NCBI GenBank assembly: GCA_024275415.1
Contig: JAJRZD010000049.1
Coordinates: forward strand, 1-32,000
DNA from: an archaeon
GTDB lineage: Archaea > Asgardarchaeota > Thorarchaeia > Thorarchaeales > Thorarchaeaceae
Length of the DNA: 32,000 nt
Direction of reading: 5' to 3'
The notes under the pieces were generated by a model. That model was not told the origin of the DNA and did not search any database. It was given only the letters and a program-made list of their open reading frames with translations. The position numbers and the translations under genes were made by a program. Shown here in pieces: positions 3,684 through 10,467 of this stretch (its first letter is position 1; every line of letters starts with the position of its first letter).

Positions 3684-3797
3684 TTTAAGCACTCAATCTG
3701 TGTTCACGAGTCCGCTCTATAACATTATTCATCGGTTCACAAATCATAAATACGCTGATGTCGAGGTTTGGGTGAAAGGGCACAATGGTGTACTATT

Positions 3798-4460
3798 ATG
3801 GGATTCCTAAGCGGTAAGAAAAAGATGGATGCAGAACGTGGGGTCTTAGAGATAAAGGGCACTATGAATGCGCTCACTCTAAGGATTAGACGGCTTGAAA
3901 CTCGAATGGCTGAAGAAAAACAAAAGGCAAAAGAAGCCATGAGCAGGGGTGATCGCACCATTGCTCGCCATCACCTGCGTGTAGCTGTTGATCTGGAGAA
4001 TCGACGAGGTAGGTACCAACAGCAATTCCTGACTTTAGAAACCGCTTTGATGAACATAGAGGAAGCAAAAGACCAGACCGAAGTTCTTCGGGTATTCACT
4101 ATTGCGAACGAGGCTCTTACTGCTGCACGTGCCATGTTGAAACCTGCTGAGATTCAGACGCAATTGGACAAGCTATCCCAATCTTTCGAGGAGATCTCGA
4201 TTGCTGGAGAACTACTCTCCGAAGACCTTTCTACTGGGGATATGAGCCTAGAAGCGGAGGACAGGATCGAGCGTCAGCTGGACGCTATGGAAGCAGAAAT
4301 CCTGCTGGAGAAGGAAGGAGTGCTACCACCATTGAAGACAGGTGCGGTACCAGAATCTCCTGCAGCGGCAAAGGAATCGGATACCAAGCGAGTAGATGAT
4401 CTTCTCGCAGATCTTGAAAGAGAAGCAAAGGAAGAACGCGAAAAAGAAGCCGAAGGATAG
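3798..4460 (+). CDS. Snf7 family / ESCRT-III protein (Vps20/32/60-like)
   Basis: All-helical, basic N-terminal half and acidic C-terminal half; pattern AKEAMSRGDRTIARHHLR...LE..R...QQQ..TLE matches the Snf7 core; acidic linker and terminal helix. Start moved to ATG 3798. Confidence 0.85.
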   Translation: MGFLSGKKKMDAERGVLEIKGTMNALTLRIRRLETRMAEEKQKAKEAMSRGDRTIARHHLRVAVDLENRRGRYQQQFLTLETALMNIEEAKDQTEVLRVFTIANEALTAARAMLKPAEIQTQLDKLSQSFEEISIAGELLSEDLSTGDMSLEAEDRIERQLDAMEAEILLEKEGVLPPLKTGAVPESPAAAKESDTKRVDDLLADLEREAKEEREKEAEG

Positions 4461-5362: not shown

Positions 5363-6511
5363 TCAACTATATTTGACTCCAGCGCCCGTATTCAGAACCA
5401 CGATATCTTCATCATGGTCAACCATTCCAGATTCTATTAGATTCCGCAGTCCTGCAATAGCCACCGCAGCCTCAGGGCATATGTCGATACCTTCCATCTT
5501 TGCAACGAAGTGTCTAGTAGGGACTATTTCACTTTCAGTGATTGCAATCGCCCCTCCTCCTGAACGCCTGAGAGCTGCAAGTATAAGTCTACCCGCAAAT
5601 GGCGAAGGTACTCTAAGACCGTACGCCTGCGTCTGTCCATTATCCCACGCCTTTATTGTCGATGCATTTGACTCGAATGCAGCAACAACAGGCGCACACC
5701 CTTCACTTTGTGCAGCATACAACCGAGGTCTCTCCTTGCCGATAAGGCCGATTGCTTCTAATTCTTCTAGCCCTTTCCATATACCTATCAACGCTGTGCC
5801 CCCTCCAGTAGGACAGATAATCACATCGGGCACATTCCATTCAAGCTGCTCTGCAATCTCGAAAGCGAGAGTTTTCTTACCCTCTACTCGATATGGCTCT
5901 TTAGTCGTAGACAAATCAACCCAATTGCCATTTTCCTGCCTCATCACCCGACCACTATCCGAGATTGTACCTGGGGTGGAATGGGTAACTGCCCCATACA
6001 TCTTGCAATCATTAAAGAACTGTTGAGGTGTGTCCTCTGGCATAAAGATGTGTGCTGGCACACCGGCCACAGCACAGTATGCACTGGTAGACACAGCTGC
6101 ATTCCCTGCTGAGGGTAGAGCGAATGCCTCTGCACCGAGCTCTAGATGCTTGGAGATTGCTGCACACAATCCTCTATCCTTGAAGCTCAAAGTGGGATTC
6201 CTTGATTCATCCTTGATTCTTAGGACATGCAGCCCAAAATGTGTGTTCAGCCTTCTTGTCAGGATCAATGGTGTCGCGCCCTCACCCAAGCTCATGATGA
6301 ACGAAGGTGATTTGACAGGGAGCAGCATCGAGTACCGCCACATCGAGTTGACAGGGCTCGGGAACTCGCCACAATCAACAGCATCGGTCACTTGATTCAG
6401 GTGGTATCTTGCAAGAAGGGGTGACCCACAGATGCAATAGGTCGCTTGGGCGTCAGGGGAGTATTGTTTGCTACATTCAGGGCATTCAAGATGTGAGATG
6501 TAGGATATCAT
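5363..6511 (-). CDS. thrC: Threonine synthase (PLP fold type II)
   Basis: N-terminal CxxC...C knuckle, SLGEG.TPL, NPTLSFKDRG (PLP lysine), SAGNAA, EGKKTLAFE, PTGGG, EAAVA; start moved to ATG 6511. Confidence 0.9.
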   Translation of the reverse strand: MISYISHLECPECSKQYSPDAQATYCICGSPLLARYHLNQVTDAVDCGEFPSPVNSMWRYSMLLPVKSPSFIMSLGEGATPLILTRRLNTHFGLHVLRIKDESRNPTLSFKDRGLCAAISKHLELGAEAFALPSAGNAAVSTSAYCAVAGVPAHIFMPEDTPQQFFNDCKMYGAVTHSTPGTISDSGRVMRQENGNWVDLSTTKEPYRVEGKKTLAFEIAEQLEWNVPDVIICPTGGGTALIGIWKGLEELEAIGLIGKERPRLYAAQSEGCAPVVAAFESNASTIKAWDNGQTQAYGLRVPSPFAGRLILAALRRSGGGAIAITESEIVPTRHFVAKMEGIDICPEAAVAIAGLRNLIESGMVDHDEDIVVLNTGAGVKYS

Positions 6512-6587
6512 TTTTCGGCATATATTACATCTAAGCGTACTGTTATATTTGCCCCTGTATCTTGTAACGGATGAGGATGTTCGCATA

Positions 6588-7796
6588 ATGGGTCAGTTAA
6601 GGCGAAAGGTTCTTCCTTTTTCTGCACTGGTTGGATTGAGTCGACTTAAGTTGGCCCTTATTCTAAATGGAGTGAATCCCCGTATTGGGGGTCTGCTGGT
6701 TTCCGGTTCGAAAGGTACTGGAAAGACAACACTCGTCCGTGCATTTGCAGAACTATTGCCTGAAGTAGATGTCGTTGAGGGTTGTCGGTTCGGGTGTAAT
6801 CCTAACCAGCAGGACGCCTTATGTCCTGACTGTCAAGCAAAGGTCGACATGGGCGAAACCCTTTCGTCAAAGAAGAGGCCCATGCGTGTTGTCAACCTTC
6901 CCCTGTCTACTACTGAGGACCGATTGATTGGAGCTCTTGATATCGAACGTGTACTTTCTGAGGGCATTCAGGCATTGAAACCCGGTATCCTCGCCGAGGC
7001 TCATCAGAATGTTCTCTATGTGGACGAAGTGAATCTTCTCCCAGACCATTTGGTGGATGATTTGCTGGATGCCGCGGCGACAAAGGTCAATGTCATTGAA
7101 CGCGAAGGTATTTCCATCTCACACCCCTCTGACTTTGTGTTGATGGGCTCGATGAATCCTGAAGAGGGTGAGTTGCGTCCTCAGTTGCTGGATCGTTTCC
7201 CCCTTCATGTATCTGTAGGGTCAGAATACAGCATTGAAGAACGCATGGAGCTAGTAAGGAGGAATCTGGCGTTCGAACAGAACCCCGATGCGTTCATGAG
7301 AAACTGGGAACCAGAGCAGAACGAACTGCGTCAGCAGATCATTGATGCTCGAGCGTTACTCCCAGATGTGGTTCTAAGTGATACTCAGCTTCGTGCTATA
7401 GCAATGGCGACCGACGCCCTTGAGGTAGACGGGGTTCGTCCTGATATCATCATCAGTAAGACTGCCATTACACTTGCTGCATTTCTTGGTAGAAAAGAGG
7501 TGGGTATTAAGGATCTGCAATTGGCGTCCCAACTGACATTGAGTCACCGCACACGGCGTGGAGGACTTCTAGAGCCTCCCTTACCCTCGGAGATCAATGA
7601 AGCCATCACTAAGGCGCATAATGTAGCACAGAAGCAAGATCGGAGAAAGTCCCCGACCCAAACGCCTCCTGAGAAACAAAGTGATGATAGTAAGAGTTCT
7701 GGTAGGCGCATGAGCGGAGGGAAATTTGGTCGTCAAGACACCTTTGCAGAGATGAGCATGGGTGAGAAGGGCAAAAAAAAACTCCGAAGAAAATAA
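6588..7796 (+). CDS. ChlI/BchI-like chelatase AAA+ ATPase (5' part of a frameshifted chlD-like gene)
   Basis: PFSALVG, Walker A GSKGTGKT, C.FGC.P...CPDC, LYVDEVNLL (Walker B), NPEEGELRPQLLDRF; ends in a Pro/charged linker and GGC AAA AAA AAA CTC. Confidence 0.93.
   Translation: MGQLRRKVLPFSALVGLSRLKLALILNGVNPRIGGLLVSGSKGTGKTTLVRAFAELLPEVDVVEGCRFGCNPNQQDALCPDCQAKVDMGETLSSKKRPMRVVNLPLSTTEDRLIGALDIERVLSEGIQALKPGILAEAHQNVLYVDEVNLLPDHLVDDLLDAAATKVNVIEREGISISHPSDFVLMGSMNPEEGELRPQLLDRFPLHVSVGSEYSIEERMELVRRNLAFEQNPDAFMRNWEPEQNELRQQIIDARALLPDVVLSDTQLRAIAMATDALEVDGVRPDIIISKTAITLAAFLGRKEVGIKDLQLASQLTLSHRTRRGGLLEPPLPSEINEAITKAHNVAQKQDRRKSPTQTPPEKQSDDSKSSGRRMSGGKFGRQDTFAEMSMGEKGKKKLRRK
7773..7781 (+). 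other. A9 slippery site, candidate programmed -1 frameshift or transcriptional slippage signal
   Basis: Nine A residues in frame (AAA AAA AAA). The -1 frame opens only after TGA 7763-7765 and the 0 frame closes at TAA 7794-7796, so the roughly 28-nt overlap is centred on this run. Confidence 0.75.
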
Positions 7797-7840
7797 GGAA
7801 CCCGCGCGGCAATCCCATCAAGGGGACAATCTGTGCAATC

Positions 7841-9280
7841 ATGATGGTTGCGACTTTTTCCTATTTTGCGTGGATTGCTATCTCTCCCGTCAATCTGATA
7901 TTGGGTTATCCCTTTGGTCAAATCCCCACTGATAACATCCCACTGCTTATGATTAACTCGATTCTGTACTTGCCTGTGATCTATACATTAATCAGACGCT
8001 GGCTTAGAACGATGGCTAAACGAAAATCTGGGCCGGCATCAGGTATTGATACTGTCGAGTCTGGGCCTGCTGAACCTGAACCAGGTGATGAGTGGGGCAA
8101 AGCAACCCGACCCTACAAGACCCAAGACACAACAAAGATCACAGGGTCTAAGTCAGACTTGCGTGACTCTGCTCTTGCGATTGATGCAGCCTTCTTTGTC
8201 AGGTATCCTGATCTTGATACAGGTGAAACTCTCTTCGATGCTGAAGAACTCCATCAAAAAGCAATGATCCGTTCTAAGGTTTCGTCGGGAGGCTGGTCGG
8301 ATAAACGTGCATCCACCCGTGGTGTGGGGTCTCTTGGTGCTGTGGAGTCTCTCAAGAGTGGAAGGCCTACTAGGTGGAGGCGTCCTGTGGGCGAGGTAAC
8401 ATCTATTCATCTGCCCTCGACAATCATCGCCGCAATATCAAGGATTGGCAAGTTGAAGAAGGGTGAACCAATAAAGATTCGGCCCGAGGATATCCGTGAG
8501 AGTGTCTTTACCAACCGGACTCCTCTCACCATCATCTTAGTAATCGATGTCAGTCTATCTATGAAGGGAAGCCTATCCGTAACGAGGAAGATAATTGAAA
8601 GGATAGAACGGGAAACCCGCGGATCGAAGGATCGAGTGGGAGTCGTGGCGTTCAAGGATAGTGGCGCTATCGAGGTTCAGGCACCAACAACGAATTGGAA
8701 CAAGATATATCGTGCATTGACTCGACTGAGAATCTCCGGTTTGACACCTTTGGCTGAGGGGCTGATGAAATCACTAGAAACCATCAAGCGAGAACGAATG
8801 AGGAATCCTGATGTCGAGTCGCTAGTCATTGTGATATCGGATTTTGCCCCTAACATCCCACTTGCGCAATCAGTGGGTCCTGGCCATGCCCAGTTTACTC
8901 CAATCAAAGATCTCGTCAAAGCTTCCCGTCTGATCCGTAAGCACAATGTTCGGCTAGTAGCTGTCGATGTGGATCGCGACCATAGAATGTGGTCTCGTGT
9001 ATTGAAACGACCTTACCACGAGGCCCTTGAACTGGCAGTCACACTTCGAATGAAAAAGGATGGACTCCCGTCTGTTTCCGAAACCATTCTTCGTGTCAAT
9101 GAGTTCAGACAGCAATTCAGTGCCTTTCTCATCGCACGGGCAAGCGGTGGTAAGACCTTCCTTGTTGAGGAGCTGCTGAAGGAGAAATCCGTACTTGGGA
9201 GGATCTTATCAGCTACCAGATCGGATGTACGAATAGATTCTGCCTCCCTGAAGTCAGCGGAAACCTATCTTGTCAAGTAA
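7841..9280 (+). CDS. vWA-domain (ChlD C-terminal-like) protein with two N-terminal TM helices; probably the 3' part of a frameshifted chlD-like gene
   Basis: MIDAS motif VIDVSLSM, GLTPLAEGL, VISDF, IHLPSTIIAA (ChlD-like IH..AT..AA); the frame is open from 7766 and is -1 relative to the upstream ATPase. Confidence 0.88.
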   Translation: MMVATFSYFAWIAISPVNLILGYPFGQIPTDNIPLLMINSILYLPVIYTLIRRWLRTMAKRKSGPASGIDTVESGPAEPEPGDEWGKATRPYKTQDTTKITGSKSDLRDSALAIDAAFFVRYPDLDTGETLFDAEELHQKAMIRSKVSSGGWSDKRASTRGVGSLGAVESLKSGRPTRWRRPVGEVTSIHLPSTIIAAISRIGKLKKGEPIKIRPEDIRESVFTNRTPLTIILVIDVSLSMKGSLSVTRKIIERIERETRGSKDRVGVVAFKDSGAIEVQAPTTNWNKIYRALTRLRISGLTPLAEGLMKSLETIKRERMRNPDVESLVIVISDFAPNIPLAQSVGPGHAQFTPIKDLVKASRLIRKHNVRLVAVDVDRDHRMWSRVLKRPYHEALELAVTLRMKKDGLPSVSETILRVNEFRQQFSAFLIARASGGKTFLVEELLKEKSVLGRILSATRSDVRIDSASLKSAETYLVK

Positions 9281-9363: not shown

Positions 9364-10467
9364 GTGAGTACTGAGAGCCTGATGCAGGTGTTCGATGACT
9401 GTACTTTTCATACGTTAGAAACAGGACTCGTGCGCACTACACCACTGGAGTACCCCCCCATGTTATCAGGAAAAGTCCCTCCCGAGGTATTGAAGTCACG
9501 AGTGTTCAAGCACCTAGGATTTACGAATCCTGACCTAATCCTAGGTCCGGCTGTTGGACAGGACGCCTCTCTGATTCGGATAGGAAACCGCATCATTGTC
9601 GCTTCCACTGATCCAATCACGGGTTCTGTTGAGGACATCGGCTGGCTGTCAGTGCATGTGAACGCCAATGATATCGCTACCTTTGGCGTCGAACCAAAGT
9701 GGTTTTTGGCTTCGATTCTGTTACCCTCTGGGTCAACTGAACACGAACTCGAACGGATCATGGCGCAAATCGATGATGCCGCAAGCTCACTGGGCATTAC
9801 TGTTGCCGGGGGACATACCGAGATAACGGAAGGAATTGACAGGCCTATTATCGCTGGCTTCATGATAGGCGAAACTACTGAGGGTGACTACGTGACCTCT
9901 CAGGGAGCTCAGCCTGGTGATGCCATCATAATGACAAAGTCGGCTGCTATTGAAGGGACTGCAATACTGGCTGCCGAAAACGCATCTGCATTGCAGCATC
10001 ATATTGAAGAAAGCATCATAACCGATGCTCTTGCCCTCCGAGAACAAATCAGCGTCGTCAAAGATGGTGTTATCGCTTTCAGGACGGGATTCATAACTGC
10101 GATGCACGATCCCACCGAAGGCGGGATTGCCAACGGGATTCATGAGATATGTGATGCAAGCAATGTCGGCTGTACCATTGTCAAAGAGCACATCCCTATC
10201 GCAGAGTCCACGCAGGCTATCTGTTCCTACCTGAATCTTGATCCCTTGCAGCTTATCAGTAGTGGTAGTATGTTAATGACCTGCGTAGCGAAGCATGCTC
10301 AGGATGTTATTGCATCTCTTACTTCCCATGGGATTCTGGCATCCAAAATCGGAGTAATTGAGAAGGACTTCACGAAACGCGATTTGCAGACTAGTGACGG
10401 AATTGTAGATCTTGTCCGTCCAGAAACGGATGAATTGTGGAGTGGTTTGAAAAAGATCAACTCATGA
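9364..10467 (+). CDS. AIR synthase-related protein (PurM/ThiL/HypE/SelD superfamily)
   Basis: GKVPPEVL, GP.VG.DA, STDPIT, HVNANDIA, GGHTE, MHDPTEGG, LISSGS; true start uncertain (9364, 9382 or 9460). Confidence 0.9.
   Translation: MSTESLMQVFDDCTFHTLETGLVRTTPLEYPPMLSGKVPPEVLKSRVFKHLGFTNPDLILGPAVGQDASLIRIGNRIIVASTDPITGSVEDIGWLSVHVNANDIATFGVEPKWFLASILLPSGSTEHELERIMAQIDDAASSLGITVAGGHTEITEGIDRPIIAGFMIGETTEGDYVTSQGAQPGDAIIMTKSAAIEGTAILAAENASALQHHIEESIITDALALREQISVVKDGVIAFRTGFITAMHDPTEGGIANGIHEICDASNVGCTIVKEHIPIAESTQAICSYLNLDPLQLISSGSMLMTCVAKHAQDVIASLTSHGILASKIGVIEKDFTKRDLQTSDGIVDLVRPETDELWSGLKKINS

Follow-up and report, generated by a model that had tools for sequence, protein, structure and literature searches.

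A poly-A recoded ChlI/ChlD-type gene of Thorarchaeota may supply both a soluble ATPase and a membrane-tethered ATPase-vWA form

Motors of the ChlI/ChlD type are known solely as the soluble engines that drive the magnesium and cobalt chelatases. Frameshifting in chlD-type genes is not new, having been published between 2013 and 2022. A -1 recoding event at a poly-A run yields the small and the medium subunit from one gene, as tested with reporters (PMC3711429, PMC9227772), and nine A's gave 40% frameshifting in reporters in other species (PMC3711429). The cluster of such genes, fs-chlD, has been reported in archaea (Methanocaldococcus, Methanococcus) and in bacteria (PMC3711429, PMC9227772). 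Recoding of the chlD type has also been discussed for species that do not have the large subunit, and the function of orphan chlD copies lacking that partner was called unclear (PMC9227772). An analogy for the mechanism comes from adaptors with a von Willebrand factor A (vWA) domain that act together with AAA+ ATPases (PMC9976466; bioRxiv 10.64898/2026.10.09.757910), including NorQD, whose client is a membrane enzyme (PMC9976466). Here, we describe a chlD-type gene found within the first 32,000 nucleotides (nt) of contig JAJRZD010000049.1 from an archaeon of the Thorarchaeaceae; this whole stretch of DNA is referred to below as the window.

We consider it likely that this locus is a single recoded gene of the fs-chlD type, producing a soluble short ATPase and a long form tethered by a two-helix hairpin, the client of which would be membrane-bound and probably not a tetrapyrrole. 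A sequence-only reading of the window had known of no described membrane-anchored ChlD, and our literature search, which left many journals outside its reach, also returned no paper on such a protein or on any protein with the order AAA+, transmembrane segment, vWA.

The frame encoding the ATPase and the frame encoding the vWA domain overlap at a run of nine A's, the sole homopolymer of at least nine residues in the window. Joined across this run, the two frames would give a long product of approximately 900 aa, counted from ATG 6579, which differs immaterially from the 897 aa of the sequence-only reading. The locus was compared with a set of 29 loci from its Thorarchaeota family in which both open reading frames (ORFs) are present and whose proteins are 54-76% identical. 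A run of A9 or A10 is found at the same site in 26 of the 29, and in these the vWA frame is always -1. The phase and length of the run vary among the family loci (T+A9, G+A10), and a -1 event is needed still. A zero-frame stop, either TAA or TGA, follows a few codons past the run in most orthologues. The run is kept at the nucleotide level, though AAG would specify the same lysines. At two of the 29 loci A10 is found where relatives have A9, and these genes encode in-frame proteins of 898 and 893 aa.

The peptide leading from the junction to the annotated vWA start at ATG 7841, KKTPKKIRNPRGxPIKGTIC, is among the best conserved parts of the protein. In the 14 codons that precede the first hydrophobic helix, the ratio of nonsynonymous to synonymous differences per site (pN/pS) was 0.21 in the vWA frame versus 1.4 and 2.5 in the other two frames. 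Purifying selection thus acts in the vWA frame only, and the stretch upstream of the annotated ATG is therefore translated in that frame; nothing but a change of frame out of the ATPase ORF can bring this about. On this comparative evidence, the long ATPase-hairpin-vWA product is very likely real.

Three further observations concern the recoding site. In the two in-frame A10 genotypes, the slip would have to go the other way to yield the short ATPase. At one of the 29 loci the long run is broken up, and the A7 that is left abuts the zero-frame stop (CCA AAA AAA TAA), which is the classic heptamer-plus-stop arrangement. Finally, a Thorarchaeota-like metagenome-assembled genome (CAZSTY010000099.1, approximately 2018-2030) has the same A9 and -1 relation, with a second frame change in the vWA part that is probably an assembly error.

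Gene callers and the NCBI annotation place two separate genes here, the second being a 476-479 aa 'VWA domain-containing protein' started at ATG 7841, in which case an anchored adaptor would merely partner a soluble ATPase. This ATG falls inside the first hydrophobic helix; a start there still leaves 23 hydrophobic residues of that helix, and all 29 orthologues keep a Met within it at either of two neighboring positions. However, the 20 residues before Met 7841 are as highly conserved as described above, with the low pN/pS in this frame only, and the A9 run is retained at the nucleotide level though AAG is synonymous. In addition, the two A10 relatives are in-frame fusions, as is every homologue outside the family, and inspection by eye revealed nothing resembling a Shine-Dalgarno motif in front of ATG 7841 at the usual spacing. 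We therefore regard two separate genes as unlikely, though independent initiation could take place alongside the slip.

Following the shift site, the sequence-only reading had pointed out two hydrophobic segments set between basic clusters, and these were confirmed at the same positions and in each of the 29 family orthologues together with both basic flanks. The short product ends, as had been proposed, just before the putative anchor, its TAA stop at 7794-7796 lying 27 nt ahead of the first hydrophobic segment, which begins at 7823. Hydrophobicity was assessed as Kyte-Doolittle means over 19 residues (KD19), and the ATPase ORF when scanned for hydrophobicity contained no segment comparable to the hairpin. 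Insertion free energy, estimated on an approximate scale, was about -0.4 kcal/mol for the first segment, which is strong, and about +3.1 for the second, which is marginal alone. None of the 29 orthologues has a charged residue in helix 1. The conserved helix positions include G-T-I, M, Y, W, and S-P-x-N in helix 1, with a further Y-I-P within the hairpin. The hairpin as a whole had a pN/pS of 0.44, with synonymous sites saturated (pS 0.79).

The mean net charges over the 29 orthologues were +5.7 for the N-terminal flank, approximately 0 for the loop, and +4.9 for the C-terminal flank, in agreement with the positive-inside flanks that had been suggested. Such charges fit the pattern expected for an N-in/C-in topology, in which both ends of the hairpin would be cytoplasmic. 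A natural in-frame orthologue was modeled with AlphaFold2 using a 50-sequence alignment. In the model, a confident AAA+ module is followed by a disordered stretch, a pair of long helices, a second disordered stretch, and the vWA domain. The two helices spanned residues 414-444 and 453-480, and the predicted local distance difference test (pLDDT) scores in this block were 56-81, mostly above 70. The region accordingly has what is looked for in a hairpin anchor, namely a pair of helices, each uncharged and approximately 20 residues or longer, with a short loop between them and positive charges in the flanks. The hairpin probably inserts in the membrane as an anchor, a reading well supported by the sequences and the predicted structure.

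The hydrophobic pair might instead be monotopic, re-entrant, or buried in an oligomer interface, or helix 1 alone might span the membrane and so place the vWA domain outside the cell. Helix 2 invites this thought, as two Pro and an Asn (replaced by Asp in some relatives) occur within it and its insertion score is marginal. All 29 orthologues, however, keep two uncharged helices of approximately 25 and 21 residues, a neutral loop, and strongly basic flanks, and other lineages have more hydrophobic pairs, with KD19 values of up to 3.0, or, once, four segments. Furthermore, if the vWA domain functions as its relatives do, it has to be within reach of the AAA+ ring in the cytoplasm. A hairpin that does not span the membrane, or that does so by one helix, is in our judgment quite unlikely.

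The sequence-only reading had placed the hairpin in the ChlD linker. It does sit between the AAA+ and vWA domains, but the acidic and Pro-rich linker is not replaced and instead follows the hairpin. This linker is predicted to be disordered, with pLDDT below 50 in the AlphaFold2 orthologue model, yet its pattern (SGPAxGIDxVExG…PEPGDEWG.ATRPY) contains many residues invariant across the family, the invariant columns being G89, G93, I94, D95, V97, E98, E105, G107, D108, G111, and Y117. So many invariant residues in a stretch predicted to be disordered point to a docking motif more than to a passive spacer. In the vWA domain itself, the D-x-S-x-S motif of the MIDAS (metal ion-dependent adhesion site) is intact, and D261, S263, and S265 are invariant. 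The vWA ORF matches positions 394-617 of TIGR02442 and 319-577 of BchD-ChlD, as well as the BchD chain of PDB 2x31.

The ATPase ORF, for which an alternative in-frame start exists at TTG 6549 upstream of ATG 6579, has intact Walker A (GSKGTGKTT) and Walker B (DEVN) motifs and matches AAA_5, Mg_chelatase, and AAA_lid_2 in Pfam. Its best relatives in the PDB were ChlI 6l8d (E 2.4e-94) and BchI 1g8p (E 1.9e-87). The Pfam match to bpMoxR had an E of only 7e-4 and was below the cut-off. Judged by these matches, the ATPase is a member of the ChlI group and not a MoxR-proper protein. The N- and C-terminal halves of TIGR02442 ('putative cobaltochelatase') and of BchD-ChlD are each covered by one of the two ORFs. 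The ATPase ORF matched NCBIfam models TIGR02442 and TIGR02030 below their cut-offs. The scores of the two ORFs were 453 and 97 bits against the curated cut-off of 779 for TIGR02442, and 244 and 60 against 500 for BchD-ChlD; for BchI-ChlI the score was 386 against 467. Shortly after Walker A, the AAA+ module has a Cys-x3-Cys-x9-Cys-x2-Cys insert (GCRFGCNPNQQDALCPDC, 6782-6838), one Cys of which is invariant and the other three at least 90% conserved in a 50-sequence alignment of ChlD-like proteins. The insert could be a metal-binding knuckle.

Table 1. Positions in the window of the two reading frames, the recoding site, and the parts of the predicted products.
Feature	Position	Strand	Description
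ChlI-type AAA+ ATPase ORF	6579..7796	+	short soluble product of approximately 405 aa from ATG 6579
Overlap of the two frames	7766..7796	+	31 nt; bounded by TGA 7763-7765 (-1 frame open from there) and TAA 7794-7796 (zero-frame stop)
Entire -1-frame coding part of the long product	7766..9280	+	hairpin, linker, vWA domain, C-terminal helical region
A9 run, candidate recoding site	7773..7781	+	GGC AAA AAA AAA C
Basic N-terminal flank, KKTPKKIRNPRGNPIK	7775..7822	+	net charge +7; upstream of annotated ATG 7841; highly conserved
Hydrophobic helix 1, GTICAIMMVATFSYFAWIAISPVNLILGY	7823..7909	+	29 uncharged residues; KD19 peak 1.94
Loop PFGQIPTDN	7910..7936	+	9 residues, Pro/Gly-rich; predicted outside
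Hydrophobic helix 2, IPLLMINSILYLPVIYTLI	7937..7993	+	19 uncharged residues including two Pro; KD19 1.94
Basic C-terminal flank RRWLRTMAKRK	7994..8026	+	net charge +6; R-x-W-L nearly invariant
Acidic/Pro-rich linker, SGPASGIDTVESGPAEPEPGDEWGKATRPY	8027..8116	+	conserved; predicted disordered
vWA domain	8531..8983	+	Pfam VWA_2 and VWA; MIDAS D-V-S-L-S at 8546-8560

An exhaustive profile-free search with the in-frame orthologue as query returned 129 representatives having both domains in order, and hydrophobic linker segments were present in 18 of these. The names on the hydrophobic-linker clusters were all archaeal (Thorarchaeota, Promethearchaeota, Bathyarchaeota, and Thermoprotei). In a tree built without the linker columns, all 18 and the query fell inside one well-supported set of 31 rows, within which at least six gains or losses of the hairpin are needed, the tree being a FastTree estimate whose support values are to be read cautiously. 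A sample of 80 ChlD-like loci was also drawn from a broad collection. Hydrophobic linkers were found in none of the approximately 55 bacterial and euryarchaeal loci with a vWA part, which included Streptomyces, methanogens, and -1 frameshifted Chloroflexota, and within the whole sample only one Thorarchaeota-like and one Thermoproteota locus had one. As far as these sequences tell, the hairpin is the mark of an archaeal subgroup of ChlD-like proteins, and it is older or wider than the A-run of the Thorarchaeota.

Conservation of the transmembrane pair across the Asgard lineages, raised as a question by the sequence-only reading, was complete in the 29 family loci and partial beyond the family. 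Other Asgard families encode in-frame proteins of 830-900 aa, and four of the five examined had a hydrophobic linker, with two helices or, in one case, four; one had none, and the CobN-adjacent paralogues considered below also do without. No A-run precedes the hairpin in the in-frame homologues of other archaeal lineages, and a separate ChlI-like gene was not found in one genome having the in-frame anchored form. The proposal that the frameshift acts as a switch between soluble and membrane forms would consequently apply within the Thorarchaeota family, but does not extend to lineages in which the hairpin is part of in-frame homologues without an A-run. The Thorarchaeota family was the only one in which an A-run that would add a soluble short form was seen.

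The same comparisons bear on whether the A9 is a homopolymer miscall or a population variant, the true gene being A10 and encoding the long anchored protein only. A9 and A10 differ by one base in a homopolymer, two family genomes have A10 in frame, and lineages outside the family encode the fused form only. A miscall is nonetheless very unlikely, as more than 25 genomes from many genera, each assembled independently, show the same -1 relation with a zero-frame stop soon after the run, and the -1 requirement stays even when the phase and length of the run change (T+A9, G+A10).

The absence of a large-subunit gene, noted initially for the window, held in a wider search. CobN/ChlH (PF02514) was not found in this genome, which is 92.9% complete, nor in any of 36 family genomes, many of them more than 95% complete; the controls and six other Asgard genomes were positive. 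In the positive Asgard genomes, ChlD-like paralogues of 640-725 aa are encoded beside or close to CobN, and the hydrophobic linker is absent from these CobN-adjacent paralogues. One Asgard genome has both the anchored and the CobN-adjacent kinds, on different contigs. Since the CobN-adjacent paralogues are without the hydrophobic linker, the anchored form appears uncoupled from the chelatase large subunit, and because CobN/ChlH was found in neither the genome nor the family, the target is probably not a tetrapyrrole. That the locus encodes a true class I metal chelatase motor with a large subunit that escaped detection by being too divergent or unassembled, as the closest characterized relatives (ChlI/BchI and ChlD/BchD) and the incompleteness of the genome might lead one to think, is highly improbable in view of the 0 of 36 family genomes with PF02514 beside positive controls and other Asgard genomes, the pairing of CobN, where present, with paralogues that have no hairpin, and the unrelated housekeeping genes that neighbor the anchored form in four lineages.

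The order threonine synthase, chelatase-like gene, AIR-synthase-like gene, SurE is kept within the family only, and the anchored homologues in three other lineages have unrelated housekeeping neighbors. The AIR-synthase-related gene (9364-10467, + strand) starts 84 nt downstream of the chelatase-like gene, a position kept family-wide and not in other lineages. Its best NCBIfam match was HypE (129 bits, cut-off 252), followed by ThiL and SelD. The threonine synthase gene (5363-6586, - strand) is divergent and matched NF006050 above the cut-off. The ATG listed for it, at 6586, overlaps with where the ATPase begins, and the real start is probably further in, since orthologue alignments begin near residue 24. 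Farther away, a gene of the Snf7/ESCRT-III family (3768-4460, + strand; Pfam Snf7, E 2e-18) is found among metabolic genes.

The above considerations can be combined into a proposed mechanism. Standard decoding would produce the soluble ChlI-type AAA+ ATPase of approximately 405 aa. A -1 event at the A9 run, either a ribosomal slip on A_AAA_AAA or the addition of an extra A by RNA polymerase, would produce the long product of approximately 900 aa, in which the ATPase would be followed by a basic patch, the transmembrane hairpin, a second basic patch, the acidic and Pro-rich linker, and the MIDAS-bearing vWA domain. Because the flanks are of the positive-inside kind, the ATPase and vWA domains would both be cytoplasmic, with the hairpin serving as a tether. 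By analogy with related systems, an AAA+ ring on the cytoplasmic side of the membrane may be built from the short ATPase together with the long anchored form. The vWA domain, tethered by the hairpin, may dock on this ring, as in ChlI/ChlD, CobS/CobT, NorQ/NorD, and CbbQ/CbbO, and its MIDAS site could hold a membrane-associated client for remodeling by the motor. The membrane-remodeling or chaperone role suggested by the sequence-only reading would likewise follow from this analogy. Because the adaptor would be held at the membrane and the searches found no CobN/ChlH, a membrane-bound protein or complex would be the most likely client, rather than a tetrapyrrole chelatase subunit.

A number of observations weigh against this proposal of a recoded gene with a tethered product. 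Folding of the 80 nt after the A-run gave no stable RNA structure (z = -0.5), and folds of the individual orthologues shared no hairpin at a useful distance from the run. To these are added the Met conserved within helix 1 in all orthologues, which would suit an independent start, and the only marginal hydrophobicity of helix 2 (approximately +3 on the approximate scale). The homologues with only the long form indicate that a soluble short subunit is not generally required for function, and no partner gene conserved across lineages was found in the neighborhoods. Even so, each of the alternatives considered above seems less likely than a single recoded gene yielding soluble and tethered forms.

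With regard to the mode of recoding, the folds of the individual orthologues showed only a small CCC/GGG stem approximately 30 nt downstream, encoded by the conserved P-I-K-G. Given the z value and the lack of a shared fold, a stimulatory RNA structure 3' of the A-run is unsupported. The lack of RNA structure, taken with the occurrence of both A9 and A10 genotypes, is no less compatible with transcriptional slippage than with ribosomal slippage.

A more extended proposal, which we hold as possible but doubtful, is that decoding of the A9/A10 type sets the ratio of free ATPase to tethered ATPase-vWA protein, that a mixed ring at the membrane matures or remodels a membrane client, and that this Asgard/TACK branch was never tetrapyrrole-using. 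If so, the client might be, for example, a membrane-associated enzyme receiving a metal cofactor, and the system might be a surviving case of the pre-chelatase function that has been proposed for fs-chlD genes without a large subunit. A conserved membrane tether would narrow the search for the client to the membrane. The archaeal subgroup, which bears Asgard and TACK names, can be separated from the true chelatase motors by sequence alone, and its recognition would correct annotations of the 'Mg-chelatase subunit ChlD' kind. In the Thorarchaeota, a single slip would choose between the soluble and membrane-bound products of one gene, an unusual use of recoding.

Several known systems resemble this one in part. 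In the bacterial Bat (aerotolerance) operons, vWA proteins are held at the membrane by N-terminal hydrophobic helices and encoded with MoxR ATPases. These are encoded separately, in operons of several genes that include DUF58 and TPR partners, whereas the neighborhoods of the anchored form described here have no DUF58/TPR partners. The closest likeness is to fs-chlD, in which a ChlI-like AAA+ ORF and a -1 vWA ORF likewise overlap at a poly-A run (PMC3711429, PMC9227772), fused in-frame homologues exist, and some carriers are without the large subunit and the tetrapyrrole pathway. The published descriptions of fs-chlD, in contrast, mention no membrane anchor (PMC3711429, PMC9227772), and the -1 frameshifted Chloroflexota genes have soluble linkers, whereas here the slip would choose between a soluble and a putatively tethered product.

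With ChlI/ChlD (BchI/BchD) and CobS/CobT, the Thorarchaeota gene shares the ChlI-type AAA+ fold, a ChlD-like order of AAA+ module, acidic and Pro-rich stretch, and MIDAS vWA domain, and the expected mode of working by docking of a vWA adaptor on an ATPase ring. It differs from them in the hairpin with basic flanks that precedes this stretch, in that no ChlH/CobN was found in the genome or family, and in scores that lie under the NCBIfam cut-offs for BchI-ChlI, BchD-ChlD, and TIGR02442. NorQ/NorD and CbbQ/CbbO are alike in pairing an AAA+ ring with a MIDAS vWA adaptor, by which a client is remodeled so that a cofactor can be inserted (PMC9976466). Those systems, however, are made of separate soluble proteins with MoxR-proper ATPases, whereas the thorarchaeal system would combine a ChlI-type ATPase, a single recoded gene, and an adaptor that is itself putatively anchored in the membrane.

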